From: Candidatus Multivoradales bacterium
Lineage (GTDB): Bacteria > Acidobacteriota > Thermoanaerobaculia > Multivoradales > JAHEKO01
NCBI GenBank assembly: GCA_965248055.1
Contig: CBDFIJ010000004.1
Span: 3,040,001-3,104,000, forward strand
DNA: 64,000 nt
Reading direction: 5' to 3'
The translations under genes and the position numbers were made by a program. A model generated the notes under the pieces. That model was not told where the DNA came from. It did not search any database and saw nothing but the letters and a program-made list of their open reading frames with translations. This document shows positions 53,843 through 64,000 of the stretch, piece after piece. Positions within the stretch are counted from its first letter, which is position 1, and the number at the start of each line of letters is the position of its first letter.

Positions 53843-55609
53843 TTACCCCCTCCCGAGCTGTTCCCCGCCGTCAGCCAGATTCCGATGCTGATACAACTCC
53901 CCATCTTCGAATCCCAATTTCCGGTAGTAGTTTCGGGTTCCGACCGCGGAAATGACAGCAAGGTCTCGATAGCCGGCAGCCCGAGCGATTTCGACCGCAC
54001 GTTCGGTGAGCGCAGTACCAAGACCCTGGTGTTGGGTTCTTGACCCCGGCTCAGCCTGCCAGTCCACCACCTGGCCGTAGACGTGGACTTCGCGAATCAT
54101 CGCGCTGTTTTGGATCTCCGGGATGGGCACTGGTTGCTTGGGCAGGCTCAGGCGCAAGAAGCCGGCGATCTGGTCGCTCTCGGTGACGAACTCGAGAAAC
54201 ACTTGGGGCCCGATCGACGAGTCGTACTTGGTGTCGCGCAATTGCAATGCTGAACGTCGCACGCTCTTGCCACGAGTCTCACGAGCCCGGATTTCGACGT
54301 TGATTTTCCCCAGTGCCTCCAGCCTGGCTTCGGCGACCTCTCGCAGATTGGTCACCCGGTTGCCGTCGACGATGTCGCCGCCGGGGATGTCGCGGATGAC
54401 GCGAGTCAAACGGCAGTAGCGGGGTGTGGCTTCCATACAGGCCGCCAAGACCTCGACTAGTTCTTCCTCATCGTAGGGGCGCCAACGACCGTCTTGGTAG
54501 TAGCCCATCAATTCCGCACTCTCAATCAGGCTGCAGGGGTAGATCTTAAGTTCGTCGGGACGGAAGTCGGGATCGTCGAACATGCGCCGGTAATCTTCGA
54601 TGTCGGCTTGCGGACTCGAGCCGTAGAGATTGGCCATCCAGTGCCCGTGGATCTTGAAACCGGCCGCACGCAAACGTTGGACCGCGCTACGCGAGGCGGC
54701 AACGTCATGCCCCCGGTGGTTGGCTTTCAGCACCGCGTCGTTGAGACTTTGAAATCCGATCTGGACTTTGGTGGCTCCCAGGCGGCGCAAACGTGTGATC
54801 TCTGCGTCATCCAGATGATCAGGCCGGGTTTCCAGCACCAACCCGACGCAGCGACTGCCTGCCTCTTCATTGGTTGTTTGGGCAGTAGATAACTGCTGCC
54901 AGGTTGCTGCTCCGGCAAGTTGGTCCATTCCGTTTCGGCGCACCACCTGGTTGTAGTTGTCTTGAGCGATCGTCTCACCACGGACCCGGTCCTCGATCGC
55001 TTCATAGCCGGTCGACGGCAAATCGGGAAGATCCAGGCGGTCGCTGGGGAGAAAGTCGTTCATCGCCTCAAAGCAGCGGAGCACCAACCAAATCTGATAT
55101 TCCTCGGGATAAGACGACCAGGTTCCGCCCAAAACGATCAGCTCGACCTTGTTGACCGAGTGGCCATTGTTGTAAAACGCTTGCAGTCGGGATGCGGTTT
55201 GTCGGTAGGGATCGAAACGATGTTCAGCGGCGCGCTGGGCCCCGGGTTCGTCTGATAGGTAACTCTTGGGCATGCGCACGTCGCTGGGGCAGAAGATGCA
55301 CTTTCCCGGACACGGATAGGGCGGTGTCAAGACCGTCACCGGCGCTACCCCGGAAAGGGTGCGGATCGGTTTCATCCGCACCTTGTCGAGAAACACAGAT
55401 TCGTCCCGTTGCCAGTTGCGCACCTGATTTAGGTGGCGAAAGCCGCGGATGATCTCGGCCTTGGAGTAGAAGCCGCCTTCTTGTTTTGGATGGGCGCGGA
55501 GAATTCTCGCCCACGCCGCATTGTCGAGTCCGGTGGCGGTATCAACCGCCTGGACGATTCCCTCGATCGCCTGTTCGTGCTGCTGAGGATCGAAGGTGTA
55601 GACACTCAC
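53843..55609 (-). CDS. elp3: Elp3-like tRNA U34 carboxymethyltransferase (radical SAM + GNAT)
   Basis: KP.RTLSGV, CPGKCIFCP (short CxxxCxxC variant), GGT, ETRPD, KIYP, R.IRDIP, IREVHVYG, QHQGLG and ISAVGTRNYYRKLG; start uncertain (GTG 55609). Confidence 0.92.
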   Translation of the reverse strand: MSVYTFDPQQHEQAIEGIVQAVDTATGLDNAAWARILRAHPKQEGGFYSKAEIIRGFRHLNQVRNWQRDESVFLDKVRMKPIRTLSGVAPVTVLTPPYPCPGKCIFCPSDVRMPKSYLSDEPGAQRAAEHRFDPYRQTASRLQAFYNNGHSVNKVELIVLGGTWSSYPEEYQIWLVLRCFEAMNDFLPSDRLDLPDLPSTGYEAIEDRVRGETIAQDNYNQVVRRNGMDQLAGAATWQQLSTAQTTNEEAGSRCVGLVLETRPDHLDDAEITRLRRLGATKVQIGFQSLNDAVLKANHRGHDVAASRSAVQRLRAAGFKIHGHWMANLYGSSPQADIEDYRRMFDDPDFRPDELKIYPCSLIESAELMGYYQDGRWRPYDEEELVEVLAACMEATPRYCRLTRVIRDIPGGDIVDGNRVTNLREVAEARLEALGKINVEIRARETRGKSVRRSALQLRDTKYDSSIGPQVFLEFVTESDQIAGFLRLSLPKQPVPIPEIQNSAMIREVHVYGQVVDWQAEPGSRTQHQGLGTALTERAVEIARAAGYRDLAVISAVGTRNYYRKLGFEDGELYQHRNLADGGEQLGRG

Positions 55610-55724
55610 AGAGTTGATTATCCCGCAACCCGAATGGCTACTGGGATGACGCACCAGACCCTGGGTTCCCGCCCCCAGCTCCCGATCCCCTTCGCGCCGG
55701 GGCAAGCTTTCCTCTTTCGCCGAT

Positions 55725-56090
55725 ATGACCCCGGCTCCCTACCCGAACCCCCGCCGGGGCAGGCTCCACATCATCATCCCCGCAGCGCGCCCGATCAACA
55801 TCCCTGTAGGCAGGGCATCCCAACACGTCATCCCCGTAGCATGGGGTGATACATCAACACGTCATCCCCGTAGCATGGGGATACATCAACACGTCATCCC
55901 CGTAGCATGGGGATACATCAACACGTCATCCCCGTAGCATGGGGATACATCAACACGTCATCCCCGTAACGTGGGGATACATCAACACGTCATCCCCGTA
56001 ACGTGGGGATACATCAACACGTCATCCCCGTAGCGTGGGGATACATCAACACGTCCCCCGTAGCGTGGGGGTCCTGGGGGTCGGGGATCT
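55725..56090. repeat. Left direct repeat with 8 x 32-bp hairpin tandem units
   Basis: CAACACGTCATCCCCGTAGCATGGGGATACAT at 55821, 55855, 55887, 55919, 55951, 55983, 56015 and 56047 (last unit variant). Confidence 0.95.
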
Positions 56091-56135: not shown

Positions 56136-56438
56136 ATGGGTAGCACGTACACCCGACGGCCTTGTGCCTACATTCTCGCCAACAAGCCCCGCGGTGTCCT
56201 CTATGTTGGCGTGACCTCGAATCTTGCTGGTCGTGTCTACCTCCACCGGGAAGGTGTGGTGCGTGGTTTCACCTGGAAGTACAACGTCCACCGGCTAGTC
56301 TGGTTTGAAATGCATGCGACTATGTACGCTGCGATACAACGAGAGAAGCAGATCAAGAAATGGAAACGATCTTGGAAACTCAAGATGATCGAGCGGAGCA
56401 ATTCTGGATGGTCAGACCTGTACGAGACCTTGTTCTAG
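56136..56438 (+). CDS. Small stand-alone GIY-YIG nuclease
   Basis: YILAN...LYVGVTSNL..RV..H..G...FT.KY....LVWFE......AI.REKQIKKWKR.WK...IE..N..W.DL. Confidence 0.92.
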   Translation: MGSTYTRRPCAYILANKPRGVLYVGVTSNLAGRVYLHREGVVRGFTWKYNVHRLVWFEMHATMYAAIQREKQIKKWKRSWKLKMIERSNSGWSDLYETLF

Positions 56439-56445
56439 GCTCGAC

Positions 56446-56745
56446 GAGATCCCGGCCCCCCGCCCTCCCCCCGCCGGGATGACCCCGGCTCCCCACCCGA
56501 ACCTCCGCCGGGGCAGGCTCCCCACCCGAACCCCCGCCGGGGCAGGCTCCACATCATCATCCCCGCAGCGCGCCCGATCAACATCCCTGTAGGCAGGGCA
56601 TCCCAACACGTCATCCCCGTAGCATGGGGATACATCAACACGTCATCCCCGTAGCGTGGGGATACATCAACACGTCATCCCCGTAGCGTGGGGATACATC
56701 AACACGTCATCCCCGTAGCGTGGGGGTCCTGGGGGTCGGGGATCT
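56446..56745. repeat. Right direct repeat with 4 x 32-bp hairpin tandem units
   Basis: Units at 56604, 56636, 56668 and 56700; same leader and same terminal GGGGGTCCTGGGGGTCGGGGATCT as the left copy. Confidence 0.95.
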
Positions 56746-56786: not shown

Positions 56787-57536
56787 GTGGAAGAGAATAC
56801 CCGCCAGTACCTGGAGCAAGTCAACCGCCGTTTCTATGACCGGCACGGGGCTGCCTTTGCTTCACGGCGCACCCGTCCCTGGCCTGGGTGGGCACCGTTA
56901 ATCGAGAGCCTGCGATCCGATGGGCTGTCGTCGACAGCCCGGATCTTAGACGTCGGTTGTGGTCACGGACGCTTCTTCTCTTGTTTGCAAGAACATCAGT
57001 TGACCCCGGAATACGTCGGTGTCGACCAGAGTCTTGCGCTGCTCCGACTGGCGGCCAACCGTAGCCCTGCGGCCAGCGATGTGATCCGCAGTGCGCACTG
57101 GGTCTGCGCTGATGCCGCCAGCAGCTTGCCGATCAGACGGGGCTTTGACTTAGTGGTCGCCTTCGGACTGTTGCATCACATCCCCAGCAGCCGAGCCAGA
57201 GTCCAATTGATTCAGCGCTTGCAATCCGTGGTCAATCCGGGCGGCTGGTTGGTGTTGACTTTCTGGTTTGCCGACTCCAAACGCCGAGGTCGCGCTGTTG
57301 GTACGGAGTCACAGATCGAAGGCCGCTCATTGGATCGTGGCGATGTTTTATTTCCCTGGGGTGCCCCAGGTGATCCATCCGAAACCGAAGACGCGGTCCG
57401 TTACTGTCATTTTTTTAACAAACACGAAGTTGACGCACTGGCTGAGGCGGTCGGGTGGGGGCCAGGAGTGCGCTTTCGCGCCGATGGTCGCGAGAATCGA
57501 GAGAATGAATACTTGGTTGTCCGGCGACCACCCTAG
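56787..57536 (+). CDS. Class I SAM methyltransferase, Trm9/ALKBH8-like
   Basis: FY....AF...R.RPWP, ILDVGCGHGR, LHHI....R, PGG.....FW, D...PW and RY.H.F. Confidence 0.8.
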   Translation: MEENTRQYLEQVNRRFYDRHGAAFASRRTRPWPGWAPLIESLRSDGLSSTARILDVGCGHGRFFSCLQEHQLTPEYVGVDQSLALLRLAANRSPAASDVIRSAHWVCADAASSLPIRRGFDLVVAFGLLHHIPSSRARVQLIQRLQSVVNPGGWLVLTFWFADSKRRGRAVGTESQIEGRSLDRGDVLFPWGAPGDPSETEDAVRYCHFFNKHEVDALAEAVGWGPGVRFRADGRENRENEYLVVRRPP

Positions 57537-57838
57537 CGATTTGGTGGCCGCGCTCGGTGATTTTCCGGCATCGCAGATCTCGCTGTCTTCGGGAGTTGTT
57601 GCGCGGATAACTGGCGTAACCACCACTCTGAACCTGGAGAGAGTTGGCCGAAAGTGATGTGGGACAAGCGTTTGCGATGCGGCTCAATCTTTGCAGCTGT
57701 AAAGCTGCTACACTCGCCGCAAGCTCGTCGGCGTGAACCGAATTCCGATAACGCAGGACTTGGCGACTGCAGTACAATCGCTGCAGGTCGGGTGGTATTC
57801 GCGATCTCTAGGACAAAGGGACACCGGGAGAATTCAAG

Positions 57839-58063
57839 ATGTCTATGCATTCAAATGAGCAAAACGGAGACCGAGGAAACTCGGATCTGCGAGACACGGA
57901 AAGCGGAAAGAATCGGGCCGAAGATCACAAGCCGGACTATCAAGCACCGCGCATATTGTCGATTGAACCACTGGAGGTCGCGGCTGCAGTTTGCGACCCG
58001 CCGACTGGTCTGTTTGGGAAAGTATTCGTCCCGCCTTCGTCTTGCTCGACTTTAGGCTCCTAG
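57839..58063 (+). CDS. Putative RiPP precursor peptide
   Basis: 74 aa; KPDYQAPRI RRE-type motif, then LEVAAA and VCDPPTGLFGKVFVPPSSCSTLGS; GGGAG RBS; lies directly upstream of the maturases. Confidence 0.75.
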   Translation: MSMHSNEQNGDRGNSDLRDTESGKNRAEDHKPDYQAPRILSIEPLEVAAAVCDPPTGLFGKVFVPPSSCSTLGS

Positions 58064-58123
58064 GGCCCAGGGCTCGGTGCTCGACATAGTTTGTATCCAC
58101 GCTTTTGGCATGAGGGGCCGTGG

Positions 58124-59122
58124 ATGCAAGTAGATAGTTGTGGGTTCGCCGTAGGTGCCAGTCACTTTGAACCTCGTACAGGCGATCGCAATCTCCCGAT
58201 GCCTTGGGGAGAGCACTCTATGGTGATTGCGTTGGGAGGGGAGGTGATGGCCCTGCAAGGTTTGACTTCGCTGCAAGCAGAGGAGATCGGACGAAGTTAC
58301 CAAGTGGTCGATCAAGCCGATGACCAAGAAGCTACCCCTTCAAACATGATCAGCGTAACCTTTCAACGTGGTGCGGTTCCGAAAGTTCGTCCGGGACGCT
58401 TCACTGTGAACCAGATCTACACACCGGAGACTCGTTACATGGCGCAGGTGGTCGAGGTTCTGGGCTGTGGCTTCGCCGCCAAGGTGGATCTCACTGGTAA
58501 GTGCTCAAGTTACTTGACCACGGAACAGGAAGAGTTAACGGCGCAACCAATTGTGCTGCAGAATTTCTTGCGTGTTTCGGCTGCCTACATAGCTCTACGC
58601 CGCGGGGGTTTGCTTTTGCACTCAGCTGCGATTGTGATTGATGACCGTGCTCACCTATTTGTTGGACGATCGGGCGCTGGTAAGACCACACTCTCTCGTA
58701 AGGCATTGGCGGCGGGCTGCAAAGTTTTGAGTGATGATGCGGTCATGGTGTTGCCGAGTCGCGGTTACGGCTTTGAGGTGAGGTTTGTCCCCTTTGCCGG
58801 GGAGCTAGGAATGACCTGTGCCGATCGGCGTCAGTACGCGGTAGCGACTGTCAACTGGTTGATCAAGACGGAACATTTAGCCTTGAGCGAAATAGCACCG
58901 AGCGTTCAAGTGGCTCGTGCCCTTGCCTGCTGCCCAACGGTCAACGCCGACCCTTTCCGCGTTGAGCAAACCATCTCAAACCTAGAGAACTTGTTCCGTT
59001 GCTACAAAATGCCCGAATTTCGATCGTCAAAGGATGAGGATTTCGCCAACGTCGCGGAGCTTTTGACGACCGGATCGAGCTCCTTAAGAGAAGCAGAGAA
59101 CATCCAACTGGGAGCCCTATGA
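58124..59122 (+). CDS. HPr kinase-related P-loop protein, copy 1
   Basis: GLLLHSA...FVGRSGAGKTT...LSDD...PFAGE; ATG 58124 follows GAGGGG. Confidence 0.85.
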   Translation: MQVDSCGFAVGASHFEPRTGDRNLPMPWGEHSMVIALGGEVMALQGLTSLQAEEIGRSYQVVDQADDQEATPSNMISVTFQRGAVPKVRPGRFTVNQIYTPETRYMAQVVEVLGCGFAAKVDLTGKCSSYLTTEQEELTAQPIVLQNFLRVSAAYIALRRGGLLLHSAAIVIDDRAHLFVGRSGAGKTTLSRKALAAGCKVLSDDAVMVLPSRGYGFEVRFVPFAGELGMTCADRRQYAVATVNWLIKTEHLALSEIAPSVQVARALACCPTVNADPFRVEQTISNLENLFRCYKMPEFRSSKDEDFANVAELLTTGSSSLREAENIQLGAL

Positions 59123-59394
59123 AGACTGCGCATAAGGTCAAACTGAGTTCAGATATCCGTTTTCGTCGTCTTGATCACGAAGGGGTCGTAGTGGATCAGT
59201 CCGGGCCTCGAGTGCTTGTGGTTAACGATGTGGGCATTCGTATATTGGAATGGCTTCGCGCGGGAGTTGTCGATGATGAACTGGCCACCAAGGTAGTTGA
59301 TCATTACCAAGTCCCGATCGAAACCGCGACAACGGATGTCGATAACTATCTTTCTACGCTGCTAGCCGAGCAGCTTATCGAGGAATCCAATTGA
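59119..59394 (+). CDS. PqqD-family RiPP recognition element, copy 1
   Basis: FR....EGVVV....N.VG.RI.E.L...Y.V..E.A..DV...L..L....LI; ATGA overlap. Confidence 0.9.
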   Translation: MKTAHKVKLSSDIRFRRLDHEGVVVDQSGPRVLVVNDVGIRILEWLRAGVVDDELATKVVDHYQVPIETATTDVDNYLSTLLAEQLIEESN

Positions 59395-60461
59395 CGTATC
59401 ACGGGGACATCAAAGACCGCATTCGTCAGCAGGGCCTACTGCACGGGGTGATGCTCGAACTCACCTACAAGTGCAACCTTGACTGCTTCTTCTGTTATAA
59501 CGACCGCGGCCTTGAGGGTAAGCAGATGATGCTGTCGGACTATCAGCGTCTGCTGGATGACCTTGCAAACATGGGAGTCTTGTTTGTGACCCTCACCGGT
59601 GGCGAGCCGCTGGTACACCCGGATTTTTTCGCCATCGGCGGCGCGGCTCGCGAGCGAGGCTTTGTTACCTACATTAAGACTGGTGGTCATGGGCTCAAAG
59701 GCGCGGTTGCACGTCGTCTCAAACAAGAGGTCGACCCCTTGGGGATCGAGATCAGTCTGCATGGAGCAACCGCTGAAACCCACGACCGCCAGACGCAAGT
59801 CCCCGGCAGTTTCGACAAATTGATCCGTGCGCTCCCTGAACTCATTGATTTGGGATTGCGTCCTTTGTTTGTCTCCACGTTGACCGCTTGGAACGAGCAC
59901 CAAATCGACGAGATGTTTGAGCTGGTTAATAGCTTTGGTTTACGTCTACGTTTTCAAGGTCCGGTCGCTCCACGCGACGATGGCGACACCGAGCCCTTAT
60001 CTATCCAGCCCTCTGAGGCAGCCTGGCAGCATATGGCCGCGGTTGCTGAGGAATGGCGGCAAACGGCATTGGCTGATACGGAGTGCGCACCACGCGAAGA
60101 GAAGAAAGCCTCCAGCGAACCGAAAGCTTTTTGTGGTGCTGGCAGCGAGGGGATTCTCATCGATCCATACGGCAGTGTGGTTTCGTGCCTGCAGCTGCGC
60201 CGATCTGCGGGAAACGTCCATCAACAGCCGATTCACGAGATTTGGCGATCGCACGTCTTTCGTGACGCAAGGCAGCTTTCCTACGATTCCGCGACCAGGA
60301 TCAAAGAAGAAGGCCCGTTGTCGATTCTCGGCGCGCCCCTCTATTGCCCAGGACTCGAAGAGAAAGGCTGTTCTTGCTCCAGTCAATCCGAGGGTGCAGG
60401 CCGTGGTTGCGGTCCTGGGAAGGAACAGAGTGGCCTGGTTTCGATTGGTAGCTTGGCTTAG
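59391..60461 (+). CDS. Radical SAM peptide maturase with Twitch/truncated SPASM domain, copy 1
   Basis: ELTYKCNLDCFFCY, TGGEP, SLHG...HD and CGAG...IDPYG.V..C....GN. Confidence 0.92.
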   Translation: MTYHGDIKDRIRQQGLLHGVMLELTYKCNLDCFFCYNDRGLEGKQMMLSDYQRLLDDLANMGVLFVTLTGGEPLVHPDFFAIGGAARERGFVTYIKTGGHGLKGAVARRLKQEVDPLGIEISLHGATAETHDRQTQVPGSFDKLIRALPELIDLGLRPLFVSTLTAWNEHQIDEMFELVNSFGLRLRFQGPVAPRDDGDTEPLSIQPSEAAWQHMAAVAEEWRQTALADTECAPREEKKASSEPKAFCGAGSEGILIDPYGSVVSCLQLRRSAGNVHQQPIHEIWRSHVFRDARQLSYDSATRIKEEGPLSILGAPLYCPGLEEKGCSCSSQSEGAGRGCGPGKEQSGLVSIGSLA

Positions 60462-60569
60462 GCTTACTTCTCAGCAATGTAGTAACTCGTCGGCGCTGAA
60501 CGCGATCCTCTGAGGGATTCTTTGGGATTGCCACTTCTAAAGAGGGCCTTTCAACGCAGTCAACCAACG

Positions 60570-60599
60570 TGAAGCTGCCCCGCATAAGTAGGCAGATAG
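60570..60599. mobile_element. Isolated IS3-type terminal repeat remnant
   Basis: TGAAGCTGCCCCGCATAAGTAGGCAGATAG versus the reverse complement of the IS3 right end TGAAGCTGCCCCGTTTTGGTGGACACATAG (23/30 by hand). Confidence 0.45.
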
Positions 60600-60631
60600 T
60601 GTAGCGCTCATTAGGCGAGAGCGATTTGGCT

Positions 60632-60743
60632 AGCGCAGTACCAAGCCCCTGATGTTGGGTTGGTGAGTCCGGCTCAGCCTTCCAGTCGACCATAAGGTCG
60701 TAGACGTGGACCTCGCGGATCATCGTGCTATGTTGAATCTCCG
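60632..60743 (-). pseudogene. Diverged fragment of elp3 (GNAT region)
   Basis: EIQHSTMIREVHVYDLMVDWKAEPDSPTQHQGLGTAL matches 54009-54120 (EIQNSAMIREVHVYGQVVDWQAEPGSRTQHQGLGTAL). Confidence 0.9.
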
Positions 60744-60867
60744 AAATCGCCAACCGGTGGGTTGGGTAAGACTGTGCCGCTCTGCGGCACGCTCGGTTCC
60801 TGACATCGGCAAGAGGCGACGGTGCCGGACTCTGGCTGCTTTGCCTGAGCTTGGGTACCAATCCATC

Positions 60868-61800
60868 ATGATTTCAGCGGCAGCGATTGCAGCAACCGAA
60901 CCGGCCTTCAATCGGGCGGCGCGGACTCCTTGGGGCTCGCGAACGGTAGCCGTGCGCATGGCCGGACTGGATTTGCAGTTTGGCGGACTCAGCGCCCACC
61001 AGGGATCGGTAATCAGAGATCAGTACCGGGTGGCTGATGGTTCTGTGATGATTAGTGGTCAAACCCAAGTGGTCCAGGGCGCGGTTCCTACCATGGTCCC
61101 GGGTCGATTCTCTGTCGACGGGATCTATACCCCCACCTCGACCTTCTCGGAACGAGGGTTGGAGATGGAAGGCTTGGGGTTTCGCAGCAATATAGAACTG
61201 GGAAACCCTATTCGCGGCACCTTGACTACCGATCAAGAAGACCTCACGGTGCAGCCGATCGTGTTGCAGAACTATCTGCGGGGTATCGTTGCCTACTTGT
61301 CATTGCTTCGGGGCGGGTTGCTGCTTCACTGTGCCGTGGTGATCGTCAACGATTTGGCGTACCTTTTCTTGGGGCGTTCTGGCGCTGGCAAAACCACCTT
61401 GGCGCGCACGGCGCTTGCCGAAGGATACGAAGTGTTGAGCGATGACGCCGCGGTTGCCTTGCCGCGAGCTGACGGCGGCTTCGAGGTCGGCTACGTTCCG
61501 TTTGCCGGCGAATTGGGAACCACCTGTACCGATCAACAAACCCTCTATCCGGTTGCTGGGCTGGGATGGTTGGTCAAGAGCCGGGAATTGAGAATCCTGC
61601 CGATGTCTCTAGCGACCCAGATGTCGCGGGCTCTGGCGTGTTGCCCAACTGTGAACGCAGATCCGTACCGAGTCGAGCAAGCGATGTCCAACTTGGAGCA
61701 ATTGCTGGGTGCGAGCCCGATGGACGAAATTCAATTGAACAAAGACATAAGTTTTTCTCGGGTTTTCGATCAATCGAATTGGAAAGGGGTCGGGTCATGA
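60868..61800 (+). CDS. HPr kinase-related P-loop protein, copy 2
   Basis: Paralog of 58124-59122 (PGRF.V..IYTP, QPIVLQN.LR, GRSGAGKTT, LSDD, RALACCPTVNADP). Confidence 0.85.
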   Translation: MISAAAIAATEPAFNRAARTPWGSRTVAVRMAGLDLQFGGLSAHQGSVIRDQYRVADGSVMISGQTQVVQGAVPTMVPGRFSVDGIYTPTSTFSERGLEMEGLGFRSNIELGNPIRGTLTTDQEDLTVQPIVLQNYLRGIVAYLSLLRGGLLLHCAVVIVNDLAYLFLGRSGAGKTTLARTALAEGYEVLSDDAAVALPRADGGFEVGYVPFAGELGTTCTDQQTLYPVAGLGWLVKSRELRILPMSLATQMSRALACCPTVNADPYRVEQAMSNLEQLLGASPMDEIQLNKDISFSRVFDQSNWKGVGS

Positions 61801-62072
61801 ATACGGCTGTTACCTTGAGCGCAGATCTGCGCTTTCGCCGACTCGATCAGGAAGGGGTTTTGGTCGATCAGGCGAACGGGCCACGCATCGTCGTGGTCAA
61901 TGAAGTCGGCATCCGCATTCTGGAGATGCTGCGTGAAGGGGTTGCCGGGAACGACTTGGCGGCCAATGTCGCCTCTGAGTATCAGGTCGACCCTGAGACC
62001 GCGGCCAAGGATGTGCAGTCCTTCTTGGTCGAACTGCAATCTCAGGGATTGGTGCAAGGGGTAGTTTCCTGA
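61797..62072 (+). CDS. PqqD-family RiPP recognition element, copy 2
   Basis: MNTAVTLSADLRFRRLDQEG...; ATGA overlap with kinase copy 2. Confidence 0.9.
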   Translation: MNTAVTLSADLRFRRLDQEGVLVDQANGPRIVVVNEVGIRILEMLREGVAGNDLAANVASEYQVDPETAAKDVQSFLVELQSQGLVQGVVS

Positions 62073-63124
62073 TGTATCACGACATCATCAAAGGCAAGAT
62101 TCGTCGCCAGAGCATTCTGCACGAAGCGATGCTGGAGCTCACCTACAAGTGCAACTTAGATTGCTTCTTTTGTTACAACGACCGCAAGCTGGAAGGCCGG
62201 CCGCTCTCCGTCGCCGACTATGAAACGTTGCTCGATGACCTAGAGCGCATGGGGGTGTTGTTTATTGTCCTCACCGGAGGCGAACCTCTGATCCATCCGC
62301 ATTTTTATGAAATCGGACGCGCGGCTCGCGACCGCGGCTTTGCGATTCGCGTCAAGACCGGTGCCCACGGCCTGCACGGCCGAACCGCCGAACGGCTCAA
62401 AGCAGAGGTCAATCCCTTGCAGACCGAAATAAGCTTGCACGGAGCGACCGCAGAAGCCCATGATCGGCAAACCCAGGTTCCCGGGAGTTTCGACAAATTG
62501 ATCGTGGCGATTCCAGAGTTACTTGCTCTAGACCTACGTCCATCCTTCGTCACCACCTTGACCGCTTGGAATGAACACCAAGTCGAGCAGATGTTTTCAT
62601 TGTCCGACCAGCTCGGCGTGCGCTTGCGCTTCCAAGGTCCCGTCGCCCCGCGCGACGACGGCGACACCAGTCCCTTCGCGATTCAGCCCTCCAGAGCTGG
62701 ATGGGAAAAGGTCACCGAGATTGCCAAGCGCCGCCGGGAGGAAGTTCCGGTAGAAATGGACTGTTCGTCCAAGGGTCGGGTAAATGAGCCCGGAGAACTC
62801 AAGCCCCATTGTGGCGTCGGCAGTGAAGAAGTCTTGGTCGATCCCTATGGCAGCGTCTTCCCCTGTCTCCATGTAAGGCGTTCTGCCGGCAATGTTCACC
62901 AGGATTCCATCGAAGAAATCTGGAAGTCGTACGTTTTCCGTGATGCTCGACAGCTCTCCCTCGATTCCGCAAAACGCCTCAAGGAAGAAGGTCCGCTGCA
63001 TCTGTTCGACGCTCCGGTCTTTTGTCCCGGGCTTGAGGAGAAAGGATGTTCCTGTTCCACCCCGGACCAGCGAGCTGCTAGCCCCGTCGATTCTTCCCTG
63101 GTACAACTCGGTAGCCTGAGTTAG
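62072..63124 (+). CDS. Radical SAM peptide maturase, copy 2
   Basis: Same CNLDCFFC, TGGEP, CG.G...DPYG..FPC and CPGLEEKGCSC as copy 1. Confidence 0.92.
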   Translation: MYHDIIKGKIRRQSILHEAMLELTYKCNLDCFFCYNDRKLEGRPLSVADYETLLDDLERMGVLFIVLTGGEPLIHPHFYEIGRAARDRGFAIRVKTGAHGLHGRTAERLKAEVNPLQTEISLHGATAEAHDRQTQVPGSFDKLIVAIPELLALDLRPSFVTTLTAWNEHQVEQMFSLSDQLGVRLRFQGPVAPRDDGDTSPFAIQPSRAGWEKVTEIAKRRREEVPVEMDCSSKGRVNEPGELKPHCGVGSEEVLVDPYGSVFPCLHVRRSAGNVHQDSIEEIWKSYVFRDARQLSLDSAKRLKEEGPLHLFDAPVFCPGLEEKGCSCSTPDQRAASPVDSSLVQLGSLS

Positions 63125-63461
63125 ATCCCGGCCCCCCGCTCTACCTCGCGCCGGGATGACGAGCACCAGAGCCTTCGCTGCGATGGTGAGAAAACGCCTG
63201 CCCCCGCGGGAACGTGTGGCTAGCCCCGTCGATTCTTCCCTGGTACAACTCGGTAGCCTGAGTTAGATCCCGGCCCGCCGCTCTACCCCGCGCCGGGATG
63301 ACGAGCACCAGAGCCTTCGCTGTGATGGTGAGAAAACGCCTGGCCCCGCGGGAACGGCCCCGCGGGAACGTGTGTGGTGGGCGGGGATCAACCCGGTAGG
63401 TTGCCGGGATGACCAAGCATTCTCATCCCCGTAAGTGGGAAGTCTTTGGAGTCGGGGATCT
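63077..63461. repeat. 142-bp tandem duplication (rSAM 3' end + REP) followed by further CGTC-type REPs
   Basis: GCTAGCCCCGTCGATTCTTCCC... occurs at 63077 and 63219. Confidence 0.85.
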
Positions 63462-63870
63462 GCCTCCATTCGCGAAGGTATTTGGCCGATCTAGTTTTCG
63501 ATATCCAGTGCGGCGTAACTCCCTAGAACGCTTGAGAGCTAGGCGGTGGCATGGGAGGTGCTCGGTTAAGGTCGTCCAGGCCGCATGTAGTGTGGCAACT
63601 GAATCTTGCCGCCATATCCGTCGGTCTCACATAGGTGTAACCGTGGATGAGCGGTTCAAGTGACCTAGATCAAACACCTGTGAGACAGCGCCGTTAGTCG
63701 CCGAGGCTGTGGGGGATGTGGGAATCTCGTGAGAGATTTCCAAGGGCTGTGGGAAGGCAAGCGTAGCTGGCTTTCCACCAGCCCATCATCATCCACAGCC
63801 TTGACAAGTAAAAAGGGGGCCAAGATCCTTCGGGTCTATCGAATAACCCAAAACGAAGGGAGGCCCCCAG

Positions 63871-64000
63871 ATGCAAATCGTCGCACTCGATCCAAGTTTC
63901 TACAAGTACTACCGTGAAGACATCGTTGTCTTAAGCTCTCAGGCTCGTGATCGGCTGCGCTTGGTTGCGAGCTTCGAGCAACTACGCGACAAGGGGATCT
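63871..64000 (+). CDS. N-terminus of a probable IS481-like transposase, cut by the window end
   Basis: GGGAGG RBS; MQIVALDPSFYKYYREDIVVLSSQARDRLRLVASFEQLRDKGI; upstream GCTGTGG...CCACAGC structure and GTCTCACA/TGTGAGAC inverted repeat. Confidence 0.45.
   Translation, partial: MQIVALDPSFYKYYREDIVVLSSQARDRLRLVASFEQLRDKGI

Follow-up and report, generated by a model that had tools for sequence, protein, structure and literature searches.

An uncharacterized, probable peptide-maturation gene cluster with a doubled set of enzymes

Does a short ORF followed by two sets of peptide-modifying enzymes constitute a genuine maturation system, and, if so, does it belong to any family already described? 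The question is raised by positions 57839-63124 (+) of a 64,000-nucleotide stretch of the Candidatus Multivoradales bacterium genome (assembly GCA_965248055.1, contig CBDFIJ010000004.1, positions 3,040,001 to 3,104,000), hereafter the window. An earlier note, made from the sequence alone, read it as a putative uncharacterized RiPP cluster in which one Cys-containing precursor is served by two modules, each consisting of an HPrK-like P-loop protein, a PqqD domain protein and a radical SAM enzyme (rSAM). The observation is confirmed, as all seven ORFs are present on the plus strand at the positions given there (Table 1), and the gene overlaps support translational coupling, with ATGA at 59119-59122 and 61797-61800, TTGA at 59391-59394, and a one-base overlap at 62072. 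The two modules are 48% (HPrK-like), 56% (PqqD) and 62% (rSAM) identical to each other. The double arrangement is not an assembly artefact, since in each of four runs, all from one sample that may be the source of the genome, a 6391-base Logan contig covers 57500-63106 with 0 differences. One detail needs correction: the core spacing, given in the note as C-x8-K-x7-C, was miscounted and is C-x9-K-x7-C in this peptide, whereas the Cys-Cys spacing in the family runs from 7 to 19 residues.

Table 1. Coordinates of the features of the cluster and its borders within the window, with the observations supporting each.
Position	Strand	Feature	Observations
57839-58063	+	Precursor peptide gene	74 aa; ATG start with GGGAGA 8-13 nt upstream; hydrophilic leader with Y-Q-A-P-R-I, then E-P-L-E-V-A-A-A; core starts at Cys 52, holds Lys 62 and Cys 70, and ends in C-terminal Ser 74; only copy in the genome (match to a family HMM built here at E 1.5e-14, next best hit in the genome 0.017); homologues lie beside homologous rSAM genes
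58220-59122	+	HPrK/PEPCK-type P-loop kinase-like protein, module 1	Longest ORF from 58091; ATG at 58220 has an RBS and matches the N-termini of homologues; sub-threshold hits to HprK_rel_B (32 bits), ScmC (26), HprK_rel_A (26) and PEPCK_ATP (22); precomputed Pfam label PF27840.1
59119-59394	+	PqqD-family RiPP recognition element (RRE), module 1	Discrete 91-aa protein; Pfam PqqD 38.5 bits (cut-off 23.4)
59391-60461	+	Radical SAM enzyme with a reduced SPASM/twitch-like C-terminal domain, module 1	TTG start matching the MYH N-terminus of homologues; Radical_SAM 63.0 bits (cut-off 29.5); SPASM 34.6 bits (cut-off 21.5); CxxxCxxC at Cys28/32/35
60632-60766	-	Fragment of the 3' end of the ELP3-like gene at window 54009-54142	135 bp, 81% identical, found by blastn of the spacer against the genome; lies in the 490-bp spacer between the modules; a scar of rearrangement; minus-strand ORF 60301-60861 repeats the ELP3-like C-terminal peptide
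60868-61800	+	HPrK/PEPCK-type P-loop kinase-like protein, module 2	Start uncertain, probably ATG 60868 or 60958; longest ORF from GTG 60706; ScmC 27.7 bits and Hpr_kinase_C 16.2 bits, both below cut-off; P-loop and L-S-D-D motif intact
61797-62072	+	PqqD-family RRE, module 2	ATG at 61797; Pfam PqqD 51.8 bits
62072-63124	+	Radical SAM/reduced-SPASM enzyme, module 2	Radical_SAM 61.5 bits; SPASM 38.0 bits
63077-63356	.	Tandem duplication overlapping the 3' end of rSAM 2	142 bp, 2.0 copies, 97% matches (Tandem Repeats Finder); tblastn sees the last 20 residues of rSAM 2 repeated
63658-64000	+	Left end of a multicopy IS element (rve-type transposase)	At least 11 other near-identical copies in the genome; depth rises about tenfold; transposase domains; separates the cluster from three giant C25-peptidase genes

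Whether the short ORF is a real precursor had been made a test of this reading, which would have failed had the ORF not been conserved next to homologous rSAM genes, and the outcome is in its favor. In 76 loci holding homologous rSAM genes (the window plus 75 others), PqqD is found in 74, the HPrK-like protein in 69 and a homologous precursor in 65, and in 80 mostly short metagenome contigs the precursor is found in 53 and the HPrK-like protein in 56. These loci are not all independent, because those numbered L033 and L097 are one contig, L073 and L094 are identical in this region, and L043 and L128 look alike. A precursor profile matches 908 representative clusters in a library of 1.84 billion proteins at E<=1e-3, and 167 at <=1e-10. 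The precursor is characterized by a leader motif Y-x-x-P-x-[ILV], a first Cys, a Lys, a second Cys and a C-terminal Ser. Of 109 distinct precursors, 108 end in Ser; a Lys lies between the last two Cys in 104 of the 104 that have two or more Cys; and the distance from the Tyr to the first Cys is 18 residues in 99 of 104. In 58 aligned sequences the invariant columns are Glu, Ala, Cys, Cys and the terminal Ser, and of the best 150 library matches, 147 end in Ser and 2 in Thr, which is also a hydroxy amino acid. The Ser/Thr-rich tail mentioned in the note matters less than one invariant feature, the C-terminal Ser.

The enzymes retain their catalytic motifs. The HPrK-like label rests only on sub-threshold hits to PEPCK_ATP, Hpr_kinase_C, HprK_rel_A/B and ScmC, together with conserved motifs; no fold was computed, and the family profile touches PEPCK and HPrK PDB chains only weakly. 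In an alignment of 43 sequences, however, His134, 20 residues before the Walker A Gly, Gly154-Lys155-Thr157 of Walker A, and Ser171-Asp172 of the L-S-D-D motif are invariant. Both PqqD proteins score best among NCBIfam models against lasso PqqD chaperones, below cut-off. In the rSAM enzymes, CxxxCxxC is followed by only three invariant Cys, Cys248, Cys266 and Cys319, plus a variable GCxC tail, and the profile reaches SkfB, PqqE, CteB (5wgg) and BtrN. Given that thioether synthases such as CteB have two auxiliary clusters, the chemistry of the present enzymes may differ.

The note had also stated that no cyclase or peptidase is present in the window; the absence of a peptidase is true of the window but not of the system. 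The family cassette, as found here, also holds a secreted PorU-like C25 cysteine peptidase (52 of the 76 loci and 34 of the 80 metagenome contigs) and a small S24/S26-fold protein of ~140 aa with Cys at the nucleophile position (52 and 41, respectively). Of 68 precursor genes, 48 end within 600 nt downstream of a C25 gene on the same strand, and two representative proteins read the C25 domain and the precursor in one frame. The catalytic His and Cys of the C25 proteins are kept in 95% of 40 sequences, and signal peptides are present, yet no exporter is conserved in the cassette, and how peptide and peptidase meet is unexplained. In the S24-like protein, G-x-C-M occurs in 79 of 89 sequences and G-x-S-M in 4 of 89, with V-H-R-L-L-G where LexA has its Lys. 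The C25 gene is not obligatory, as the own-family relatives L034-L040 lack one within about 7 kb. In the genome studied here, three C25 genes (contig C4, 3105155-3127173) start about 1.2 kb past the end of the window, while the S24-like gene sits about 255 kb away. Because the window's copy lacks both an adjacent C25 gene and an adjacent S24-like gene and is flanked by an IS element and a gene fragment, it could be a rearranged and partly disabled copy.

Taken together, the interpretation put forward in the note, an uncharacterized RRE-dependent radical SAM RiPP cluster with one Cys-containing precursor and two enzyme modules, is supported, having survived each of the tests named for it that were run. 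The ScmC/D/E/F and HPr-rel models, which had been singled out for comparison, score far below their cut-offs; no curated cut-off for SCM, HPr-rel-A/B, GeoRSP, mycofactocin, PQQ or lasso families is reached; no characterized class was matched; and literature searches returned no paper describing the family. The likeness to SynChlorMet cassettes suggested in the note is one of architecture only. The explanation favored here, with moderate confidence, is that the locus is a working member of a large, widespread and so far uncurated family of RRE-dependent radical SAM peptide-maturation systems, and it is likely that this is a genuine RiPP-type system of an undescribed family.

What the analysis demonstrates is the association of the small precursor with the discrete PqqD protein, the HPrK/PEPCK-type protein and the reduced-SPASM rSAM and, in most loci, with the C25 peptidase encoded directly upstream of the precursor and the S24-like protein, whereas the mechanism is inferred: no modification has been observed, leader binding, crosslinking and phosphorylation were not assayed, and no RNA run holds the locus, which leaves its expression without data. 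In this view, the PqqD protein binds the lasso-like motif Y-x-x-P-x-[ILV], and because the first Cys lies exactly 18 residues after that Tyr, the RRE would place it in the rSAM active site. The rSAM would then abstract a hydrogen atom and link the Cys sulfur to a carbon of the core, giving a sactionine- or ranthionine-type thioether, for which the invariant Lys between the two Cys is a candidate acceptor; such a Cys-centered crosslink is about as likely as not. The HPrK-like protein would phosphorylate the invariant C-terminal Ser, as HPr kinase homologues phosphorylate the C-terminal Ser of lasso precursors (PMC8498205), a step rated slightly less likely than not. Finally, the S24-like Cys/His protein or the C25 peptidase would remove the leader. 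That both modules act on the single precursor is an even proposition.

Several alternatives have been considered, the strongest of which, possible but held only tentatively, is that just one module matures the precursor, the other being a redundant or stranded copy whose own precursor, C25 and S24-like genes were lost in the rearrangements visible around it. The genome has a single precursor; 74 of the 76 loci hold a single module of this family, only the window and locus L069 holding two (L033 adds a far more distant one); and none of the 80 metagenome loci shows two rSAM copies. In addition, the spacer holds a gene fragment and the cluster ends in a tandem duplication and an IS element, while on a quick tree, for which only SH-aLRT support was computed, rSAM 2 is sister to the sequence P0006 (98*) rather than to rSAM 1, so the modules have separate histories and are not a fresh tandem copy. 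On the other hand, all six enzyme ORFs are intact, with catalytic motifs and coupling preserved, and L069 also shows two modules with one detected precursor. The two invariant Cys could each need an enzyme, although single-module loci have the same two Cys.

A less likely alternative, which does not exclude the maturation steps above but changes what the product is for, is that the modified peptide is not a free natural product but a dedicated partner of the neighboring C25 peptidase, either a constrained Lys-bearing loop acting as an inhibitor or pro-peptide in trans, or a substrate or nucleophile that the sortase-like enzyme cleaves, cyclizes or attaches to a surface molecule. Besides the adjacency, the in-frame fusions, and the retained catalytic residues and signal peptides, loci with two precursors have two C25 genes in alternating order (L030, L031, L039), the C25 proteins score 145 bits on the T9SS sortase PorU model, and the core has an invariant Lys between two invariant Cys, some gingipains being Lys-specific. 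However, the PorU score is far below its cut-off of 420, the specificity of these C25 enzymes has not been determined, own-family relatives and the window's own precursor lack an adjacent C25 gene, the peptide has no conserved exporter, and a leader-peptidase role explains the adjacency equally well.

It is very unlikely that the system makes a peptide-derived redox cofactor in the manner of mycofactocin or PQQ, with the invariant C-terminal residues ending up in the cofactor. The best specific NCBIfam hit of both rSAM enzymes is the mycofactocin maturase MftC (112 and 104 bits), some JGI records name homologues MftC, the C-terminus is invariant, no exporter is conserved, and the system spans many phyla. 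Nevertheless, the MftC score is far below its cut-off of 265, PqqE scores 69 against 381, the precursor has neither a C-terminal Gly-Val-Tyr nor the Glu/Tyr pair of PqqA, and no dehydrogenase or other redox partner is conserved in the flanks, where the conserved neighbors are two peptidases. Membership in a curated system (SynChlorMet, HPr-rel-A, HprK-rel-B/GAK, GeoRSP or lasso) is rejected despite weak hits to ScmC, ScmD, ScmE/F, HprK_rel_A/B, PqqD_rel_X, GeoRSP and lasso PqqD models, a UniRef name of 'HprK-related kinase B' for one homologue and the lasso-like leader motif, because every score is below its curated cut-off, true HprK_rel_B genes sit beside an ATP-grasp 'GAK system' enzyme and no rSAM, a true SCM cassette has the order rSAM-rSAM-ScmC and none of the precursor, C25 or S24-like genes, and the nearest Asn-synthase-like gene is about 200 kb from the cluster and the nearest transglutaminase-core3 gene megabases away.

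With respect to the history of the locus, the cassette in this genome is of what is termed here type 1, unlike the type 2 cassette of the same-genus relative, and it was probably acquired after the ancestral type 2 cassette was lost, a history for which the quick tree, the synteny and the presence of only one precursor in this genome are the evidence. An ancestral cassette appears lost at the site of the distant S24-like gene, where the order MetH / S24-like / TetR is kept, with the cassette missing in this genome (G000) but present in the compared genome G001.

On the + strand the cluster holds seven ORFs, of which the first is a 74-aa ORF with a good ribosome-binding site (GGGAGA), followed by two sets of three genes, each encoding a ~300-aa P-loop protein, a ~90-aa PqqD protein and a ~350-aa radical SAM (rSAM) enzyme. 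Within each set the genes overlap by one or four bases, and the earlier note was therefore right in describing translationally coupled triplets; the observation it made is confirmed. The PqqD, Radical_SAM and SPASM domains are placed above the Pfam cut-offs, whereas the P-loop proteins reach only sub-threshold hits, to PEPCK_ATP, Hpr_kinase_C, HprK_rel_A/B and ScmC. Protein by protein, the two modules are 48% (HPrK-like), 56% (PqqD) and 62% (rSAM) identical to each other. A 6391-base contig assembled independently from each of four runs of one sample, possibly the one from which the genome came, covers the region without a single difference, and the double module is therefore real DNA rather than a mis-join. 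The features considered here are collected in the following table.

Positions of the cluster and of related features in the window, in its genome (G000, contig C4) and in comparison loci (L numbers)
Feature	Position	Strand	Description
Seven-ORF cluster	window 57839-63124	+	74-aa ORF and two three-gene modules
Overlaps in module 1	window 59119; 59391	+	ATGA; TTGA
Overlaps in module 2	window 61797; 62072	+	ATGA; one base
Region covered by the 6391-base contig	window 57500-63106		no differences in any of four runs
ELP3-like radical SAM/GNAT gene	window 53843-55705	-	source of the fragment between the modules
Tandem repeat arrays	window 55821-56070; 56604-56725		32-bp unit, 7.8 and 3.8 copies, 96-98% matches
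GIY-YIG nuclease gene	window 56136-56438		100 aa, flanked by the two arrays
Class I SAM methyltransferase gene	window 56787-57536	+	ends about 300 bp upstream of the precursor
ELP3-like gene fragment	window 60632-60766	-	135 bp, 81% identical to the 3' end of the gene, between the modules
Tandem duplication	window 63077-63356		142 bp, overlaps the last ~16 codons of rSAM 2
IS element	window 63658-64000 and L008:871-1908		rve-type transposase
Three tandem C25 genes (L008, L125-L127)	G000:C4:3105155-3127173		2240-2344 codons, just past the window
Fourth C25 gene	C4:2923473		1194-codon frame
S24-like gene	C4:2844398-2844736		only homologue in G000
Site syntenic with the cassette of G001 (L122)	G000:C4:2842898-2846236		compared with L035 (G001)
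PF13471 hit	C4:503600		only one in G000
Second enzyme trio	L069:7825-10111	-	followed by a 412-aa ORF of unknown kind
Second HPrK-like plus rSAM pair	L033:14082-20000	-	distant, rSAM 28% identical

The reality of the precursor, which the earlier note had itself named as a point on which its reading could fail, is borne out by conservation of the ORF beside homologous rSAM genes. The rSAM has homologues in 18 of 61 related genomes, G000 included; 1036 proteins match at E<=1e-40 among the 8000 candidates scored; and named genomes carrying it belong to Acidobacteriota, Pseudomonadota, Thermodesulfobacteriota, Myxococcota, Bacteroidota and Verrucomicrobiota. A tblastn search with the 74-aa ORF found its leader-core junction beside those rSAM genes, and an HMM built from the hits then found more. 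Over 76 loci, the window included, the rSAM was counted in 76, PqqD in 74, the HPrK-like protein in 69 and the precursor in 65. Many of the misses are contigs that end too soon, and a few loci are duplicates of one another (L033 and L097, L073 and L094, L043 and L128). In 80 metagenome loci, most of them short, 53 have a precursor. A profile of 58 precursors run against 1.84 billion representative proteins finds 908 at E<=1e-3 and 167 at E<=1e-10, nearly all of them 51-100 residues long, with the match running to their last residue.

Among 109 distinct precursors, 108 end in Ser, the distance from the leader Tyr (Trp in 7) to the first Cys is 18 residues in 99 of 104, and a Lys lies between the last two Cys in all 104 that have two or more Cys, the five with one Cys being artefacts of the trimming rule. 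Among the best 150 representatives, 147 end in Ser and two in Thr, while the remaining one reads on past the core. Invariant columns in the 58-sequence alignment are Glu, Ala, Cys, Cys and the terminal Ser, and Tyr, Pro, Glu, Leu and Lys are nearly invariant. Two subtypes exist. Type 1, to which the window belongs, has C-x-P-P-...-F-G-K-...-C-x-x-L-G-S and the gene order precursor, HPrK-like, PqqD, rSAM on one strand, whereas type 2 has C-x-P-P-[AS]-K-...-C-x-x-G-P-I-S-S, and its rSAM often lies on the opposite strand.

In the rSAM family the CxxxCxxC motif (Cys28/32/35) is invariant, but downstream only Cys248, Cys266 and Cys319 are, followed by a variable GCxC tail that some members lack. 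This is fewer than the seven Cys of a full SPASM domain, and given that the profile aligns the region with PqqE and BtrN, it is inferred to be a reduced, twitch-like domain, probably with one auxiliary cluster. The HPrK-like family keeps, in 43 sequences, an invariant His, the Walker A Gly-Lys-Thr and the Ser-Asp of an L-S-D-D motif, which is the layout of HPr kinase/phosphorylase and PEPCK. A PDB sequence search with the HPrK-like protein alone gave one chance-level hit, and the family profile touched only P-loop matches, PEPCK at E 0.005 and HPrK at E 0.04. Nearly all of the HPrK-like database proteins P0121-P0240 carry a precomputed Pfam label, PF27840.1, whose name and definition were not examined and which may denote a recent family that already covers these proteins. 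The PqqD proteins score best on the lasso B1 chaperone models.

Clustering of all flanking ORFs, followed by searches with purpose-built HMMs, revealed two further conserved genes. The first, found in 52 of 76 loci, encodes a Peptidase_C25 protein, which exceeds the Pfam cut-off at 177-193 bits. It lies directly upstream of the precursor: 48 of 68 precursor genes end within 600 nt after a C25 gene on the same strand, and loci with two precursors have two C25 genes in alternation (L030, L031, L039). In two database proteins, P0287 (714 aa) and P0386 (277 aa), a C25 domain, a ~50-residue linker and a complete precursor are read in one frame, these being either true fusions or gene calls that ran through a missing stop. 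The C25 proteins keep the catalytic His and Cys in 95% of 40 sequences and start with signal peptides. The second gene, also found in 52 of 76 loci, encodes a ~140-aa protein that matches Peptidase_S24 and archaeal-type signal peptidase I weakly. At the nucleophile motif it has G-x-C-M in 79 of 89 distinct sequences and G-x-S-M in 4, and it has V-H-R-L-L-G where the general base Lys of LexA sits. It is inferred to be a Cys/His variant of the S24/S26 fold and a candidate leader peptidase.

The copy in the window differs from this pattern in several respects. It has two enzyme modules but one precursor in the whole genome: a second precursor was sought in the 490-bp spacer between the modules, which holds no fitting ORF, and genome-wide by HMM, which gave one hit at 1.5e-14 with the next at 0.017. 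No C25 gene lies upstream; instead, three giant genes, each ending in a C25 domain, lie downstream beyond a multicopy IS element. The one of these scanned against Pfam (L008) combines F5/8 type C, GEVED, CBM-like and TSP3 modules with the C-terminal Peptidase_C25 domain and appears to start with a signal peptide, while the other two were matched only on their C25 domain. Where other loci have a C25 gene, the window has the methyltransferase gene, which is not a conserved neighbour elsewhere, and its link to the cluster is therefore doubtful. Two modules are also seen in L069, whose second trio has no second precursor detected, while L033 has a second HPrK-like plus rSAM pair with its own C25 gene. 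Among metagenomes, the scan for close relatives of the two modules found nothing above 56% identity, and so whether the double module is conserved within its own subclade was not established.

No S24-like gene lies near the cluster, and the only homologue in G000 is an orphan between a MetH gene and a TetR gene. In the same-genus genome G001, the same two genes flank a complete type-2 cassette in the order TetR, HPrK-like, PqqD, precursor, rSAM, S24-like, MetH, whereas G000 has only the S24-like gene and a 163-bp gap there. This points to loss or replacement of the cassette; G000 has lost the type-2 cassette at the ancestral site, or never gained it, and carries instead a type-1 double module. 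On a quick tree, supported by SH-aLRT only, both rSAMs of the double module fall in a seven-row clade (96*) inside the type-1 group (100*), and rSAM 2 is sister to the homologue P0006 (98*), not to rSAM 1. The two modules are thus old paralogues or separate arrivals rather than a fresh tandem copy. The surroundings show rearrangement, with the ELP3-like fragment between the modules, the tandem duplication at the end of rSAM 2, whose second copy repeats the C-terminal 20 residues out of context, and then the IS element, of which at least 11 further copies at 97-99.7% identity are scattered over contig C4 and at whose edge read depth rises about tenfold. The G+C fraction of the cluster (0.53-0.58) is slightly below that of the DNA upstream (0.59-0.60), which is only a weak hint.

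While gene content, conservation and motifs were read directly from the sequences, the following account of how the system most likely works is inferred, apart from the kinase precedent. The PqqD protein would bind the Y-x-x-P-x-[ILV] leader, and the fixed 18-residue spacing would put the first Cys in the rSAM active site, where a Cys-centred crosslink would be made, with the invariant Lys between the Cys as a candidate acceptor or, alternatively, a later recognition site. The HPrK-like protein would phosphorylate the invariant C-terminal Ser, for which the precedent is direct: HPr kinase homologues in lasso clusters phosphorylate the C-terminal Ser of the linear precursor and care little about the rest of the peptide (PMC8498205). 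For the present family, the conserved P-loop residues and the Ser termini fit such a role, but Hpr_kinase_C scores only 16.2 bits against a cut-off of 33.3 and neither fold nor activity was examined, which leaves membership among the C-terminal Ser kinases undecided. Leader removal would fall to the S24-like protein or to the C25 peptidase. No exporter is conserved, although the C25 proteins are secreted, and the role of the second module and the function of the product are unknown.

The tight C25-precursor pairing leaves room for a bolder reading, considered unlikely, in which the family is a new RiPP class whose product is built for, or by, a sortase-like clan-CD peptidase. In this view, the rSAM staples a short Pro-rich loop carrying one invariant Lys between two Cys, the kinase caps the C-terminal Ser with phosphate, and the secreted PorU-like C25 enzyme encoded just upstream uses the Lys loop either as a cleavage and transpeptidation site, a bacterial counterpart of the legumain-type cyclisation of plant Lys-loop inhibitors, or as a cognate tight-binding inhibitor. 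The small S24-fold protein with a Cys/His pair would then be a new kind of leader peptidase.

The adjacency of a CxxxCxxC radical SAM enzyme, a PqqD-type RRE and a small conserved precursor gene places the locus among RRE-dependent radical SAM RiPP systems, and the interpretation offered in the earlier note is in this respect supported and extended. Its precursor family and its set of partners, the HPrK-like kinase, the PorU-like C25 peptidase and the Cys-type S24 protein, are uncharacterised; the chemistry is unproven. No description of such a system was found in literature searches on HPr kinase homologues with radical SAM enzymes, PqqD, precursor peptides or RiPPs (those on HPr kinase and RiPPs alone gave only lasso peptide or unrelated papers), on SynChlorMet, and on C25 peptidases or gingipains with radical SAM enzymes, PqqD, RiPPs or precursor peptides (where none was relevant by title and abstract), and neither PMC12710340 nor PMC7470986 contains the terms 'kinase', 'HPr' or 'C25', though most subscription journals and the supplementary lists of new RRE contexts, which may bear on novelty, lay outside these searches.

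Lasso peptide pathways with an HPr kinase homologue (paeninodin type) comprise a PqqD-like B1 protein plus a kinase that phosphorylates the C-terminal Ser, and they share with the present family the Y-x-x-P-x-L/I leader motif, a discrete PqqD protein, an HPrK-like protein encoded beside it and a precursor ending in Ser. The motif is present in 148 of the best 150 family members, but the lasso PqqD models score 31-39 bits against cut-offs of 70-80 and leader binding was not assayed, so that recognition of the lasso kind is neither upheld nor ruled out. In contrast, no Asn-synthetase-like cyclase or transglutaminase-like B2 protease appears among the conserved neighbours in 76 loci, and in G000 the nearest PF00733 hit is about 200 kb away; a radical SAM enzyme takes their place, and the locus is not a lasso cluster. 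Homology of the HPrK-like family to the lasso kinases themselves was not examined.

Sactipeptide and ranthipeptide maturases, RRE-dependent radical SAM/SPASM thioether synthases such as AlbA, SkfB, CteB, PapB and StsB, likewise have a radical SAM core with a C-terminal Fe-S domain, depend on a PqqD-type RRE and act on a Cys-bearing core. StsB is among the top NCBIfam hits at 97-98 bits, and the profile reaches SkfB and CteB chains. However, the RRE here is a separate protein rather than an N-terminal fusion, only three Cys are invariant in the SPASM region, scores are far below cut-off (625 for StsB, 850 for AlbA), and kinase-like, C25 and S24-like partners are not part of those classes; whether a thioether is formed, by a SPASM enzyme with two auxiliary clusters, was not measured. 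The neighbouring peptidase resembles PorU, the C25-family sortase of type IX secretion, and gingipains, but the one tested on the PorU model (NF033707), from L094, scores 144.9 bits over about 600 residues against a cut-off of 420. The neighbouring peptidase occurs in phyla that lack type IX secretion (Acidobacteriota, Pseudomonadota, Myxococcota and Thermodesulfobacteriota) and is paired with a small peptide inferred to be rSAM-modified.

Mycofactocin MftC and the PQQ enzyme PqqE are the best-scoring specific rSAM models and share a discrete PqqD partner and a precursor with a conserved C-terminal end. Nevertheless, MftC scores 111.9 and 103.8 bits against 265, PqqE 68.6 and 62.7 against 381, and PQQ_PqqD 15.7 against 46; the precursors are not of PqqA type and end in Ser rather than Gly-Val-Tyr, and no redox partner genes are conserved. 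The closest curated analogue by architecture is the SynChlorMet (SCM) cassette (NCBIfam TIGR04248-04251), itself uncharacterised, in which ScmC (HPrK-like), ScmD (PqqD) and ScmE and ScmF (radical SAM/SPASM) occur side by side. The earlier note had noted this likeness and proposed scoring against these models and those of the HPr-rel system. ScmC, although among the best hits of both HPrK-like proteins, scores 25.9 and 27.7 bits against 125, ScmD 15.5 against 100, ScmF 77.7 and 71.7 against 400 and ScmE 50.5 against 400. A true cassette (L222) has two different rSAM genes upstream of ScmC, rSAM identity of about 28% over the N-terminal half only, no homologue of this precursor (best E 0.24), no C25 gene and no S24-like gene (E 0.15). 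For the HPr-rel-A system, HprK_rel_A (TIGR04352) scores 25.8 and 24.5 bits against 200 and PqqD_rel_X (TIGR04353) 24.7 against 35, for PqqD 2 only. HprK-related kinase B (TIGR04355) scores 32.1 and 21.0 bits against 200, and its true members (3 of 301 genomes of the phylum) sit beside the GAK ATP-grasp enzyme TIGR04356 and no rSAM or PqqD gene. SCM, HPr-rel-A, HprK-rel-B/GAK, GeoRSP, mycofactocin, PQQ and lasso were all rejected on curated cut-offs and on context.

RRE-dependent radical SAM enzymes have produced a run of new peptide chemistries, and each new precursor family has tended to bring a new bond. The present family is large, with 908 precursor clusters at 50% identity and more than 1000 rSAM proteins at E<=1e-40, spans at least six phyla, and has no curated family model for any of its parts that scores above cut-off. 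It also combines parts not previously seen together by us: a lasso-type leader and RRE, an HPrK-like kinase with a strictly conserved C-terminal Ser as its inferred substrate, a radical SAM enzyme with a pared-down auxiliary domain, a sortase-like C25 peptidase and an S24-fold protein with Cys in the nucleophile position. The strict spacing and the few invariant residues (Cys, Lys, Cys, terminal Ser) make sharp predictions that can be tested by mass spectrometry, and the window's copy, with two modules and one precursor, is a natural experiment on whether the two enzymes divide the work. If the link to the C25 peptidases is functional, it would give a role to a large group of unexplained PorU-like proteins outside the Bacteroidota.

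A search for regulatory signals gave 0 promoter-like sites against 1.9 expected and 4 terminator-like sites against 6.4 expected, none of them well placed, and the precursor-to-HPrK spacer folds no better than shuffles (z -0.70). No RNA data set was listed as containing the locus. Upstream of the cluster, each unit of the two tandem repeat arrays that flank the GIY-YIG nuclease gene holds a short palindrome (CCCCGTAGCATGGGG); there are no spacers, and shorter matches to this flanking stretch occur elsewhere in the genome.
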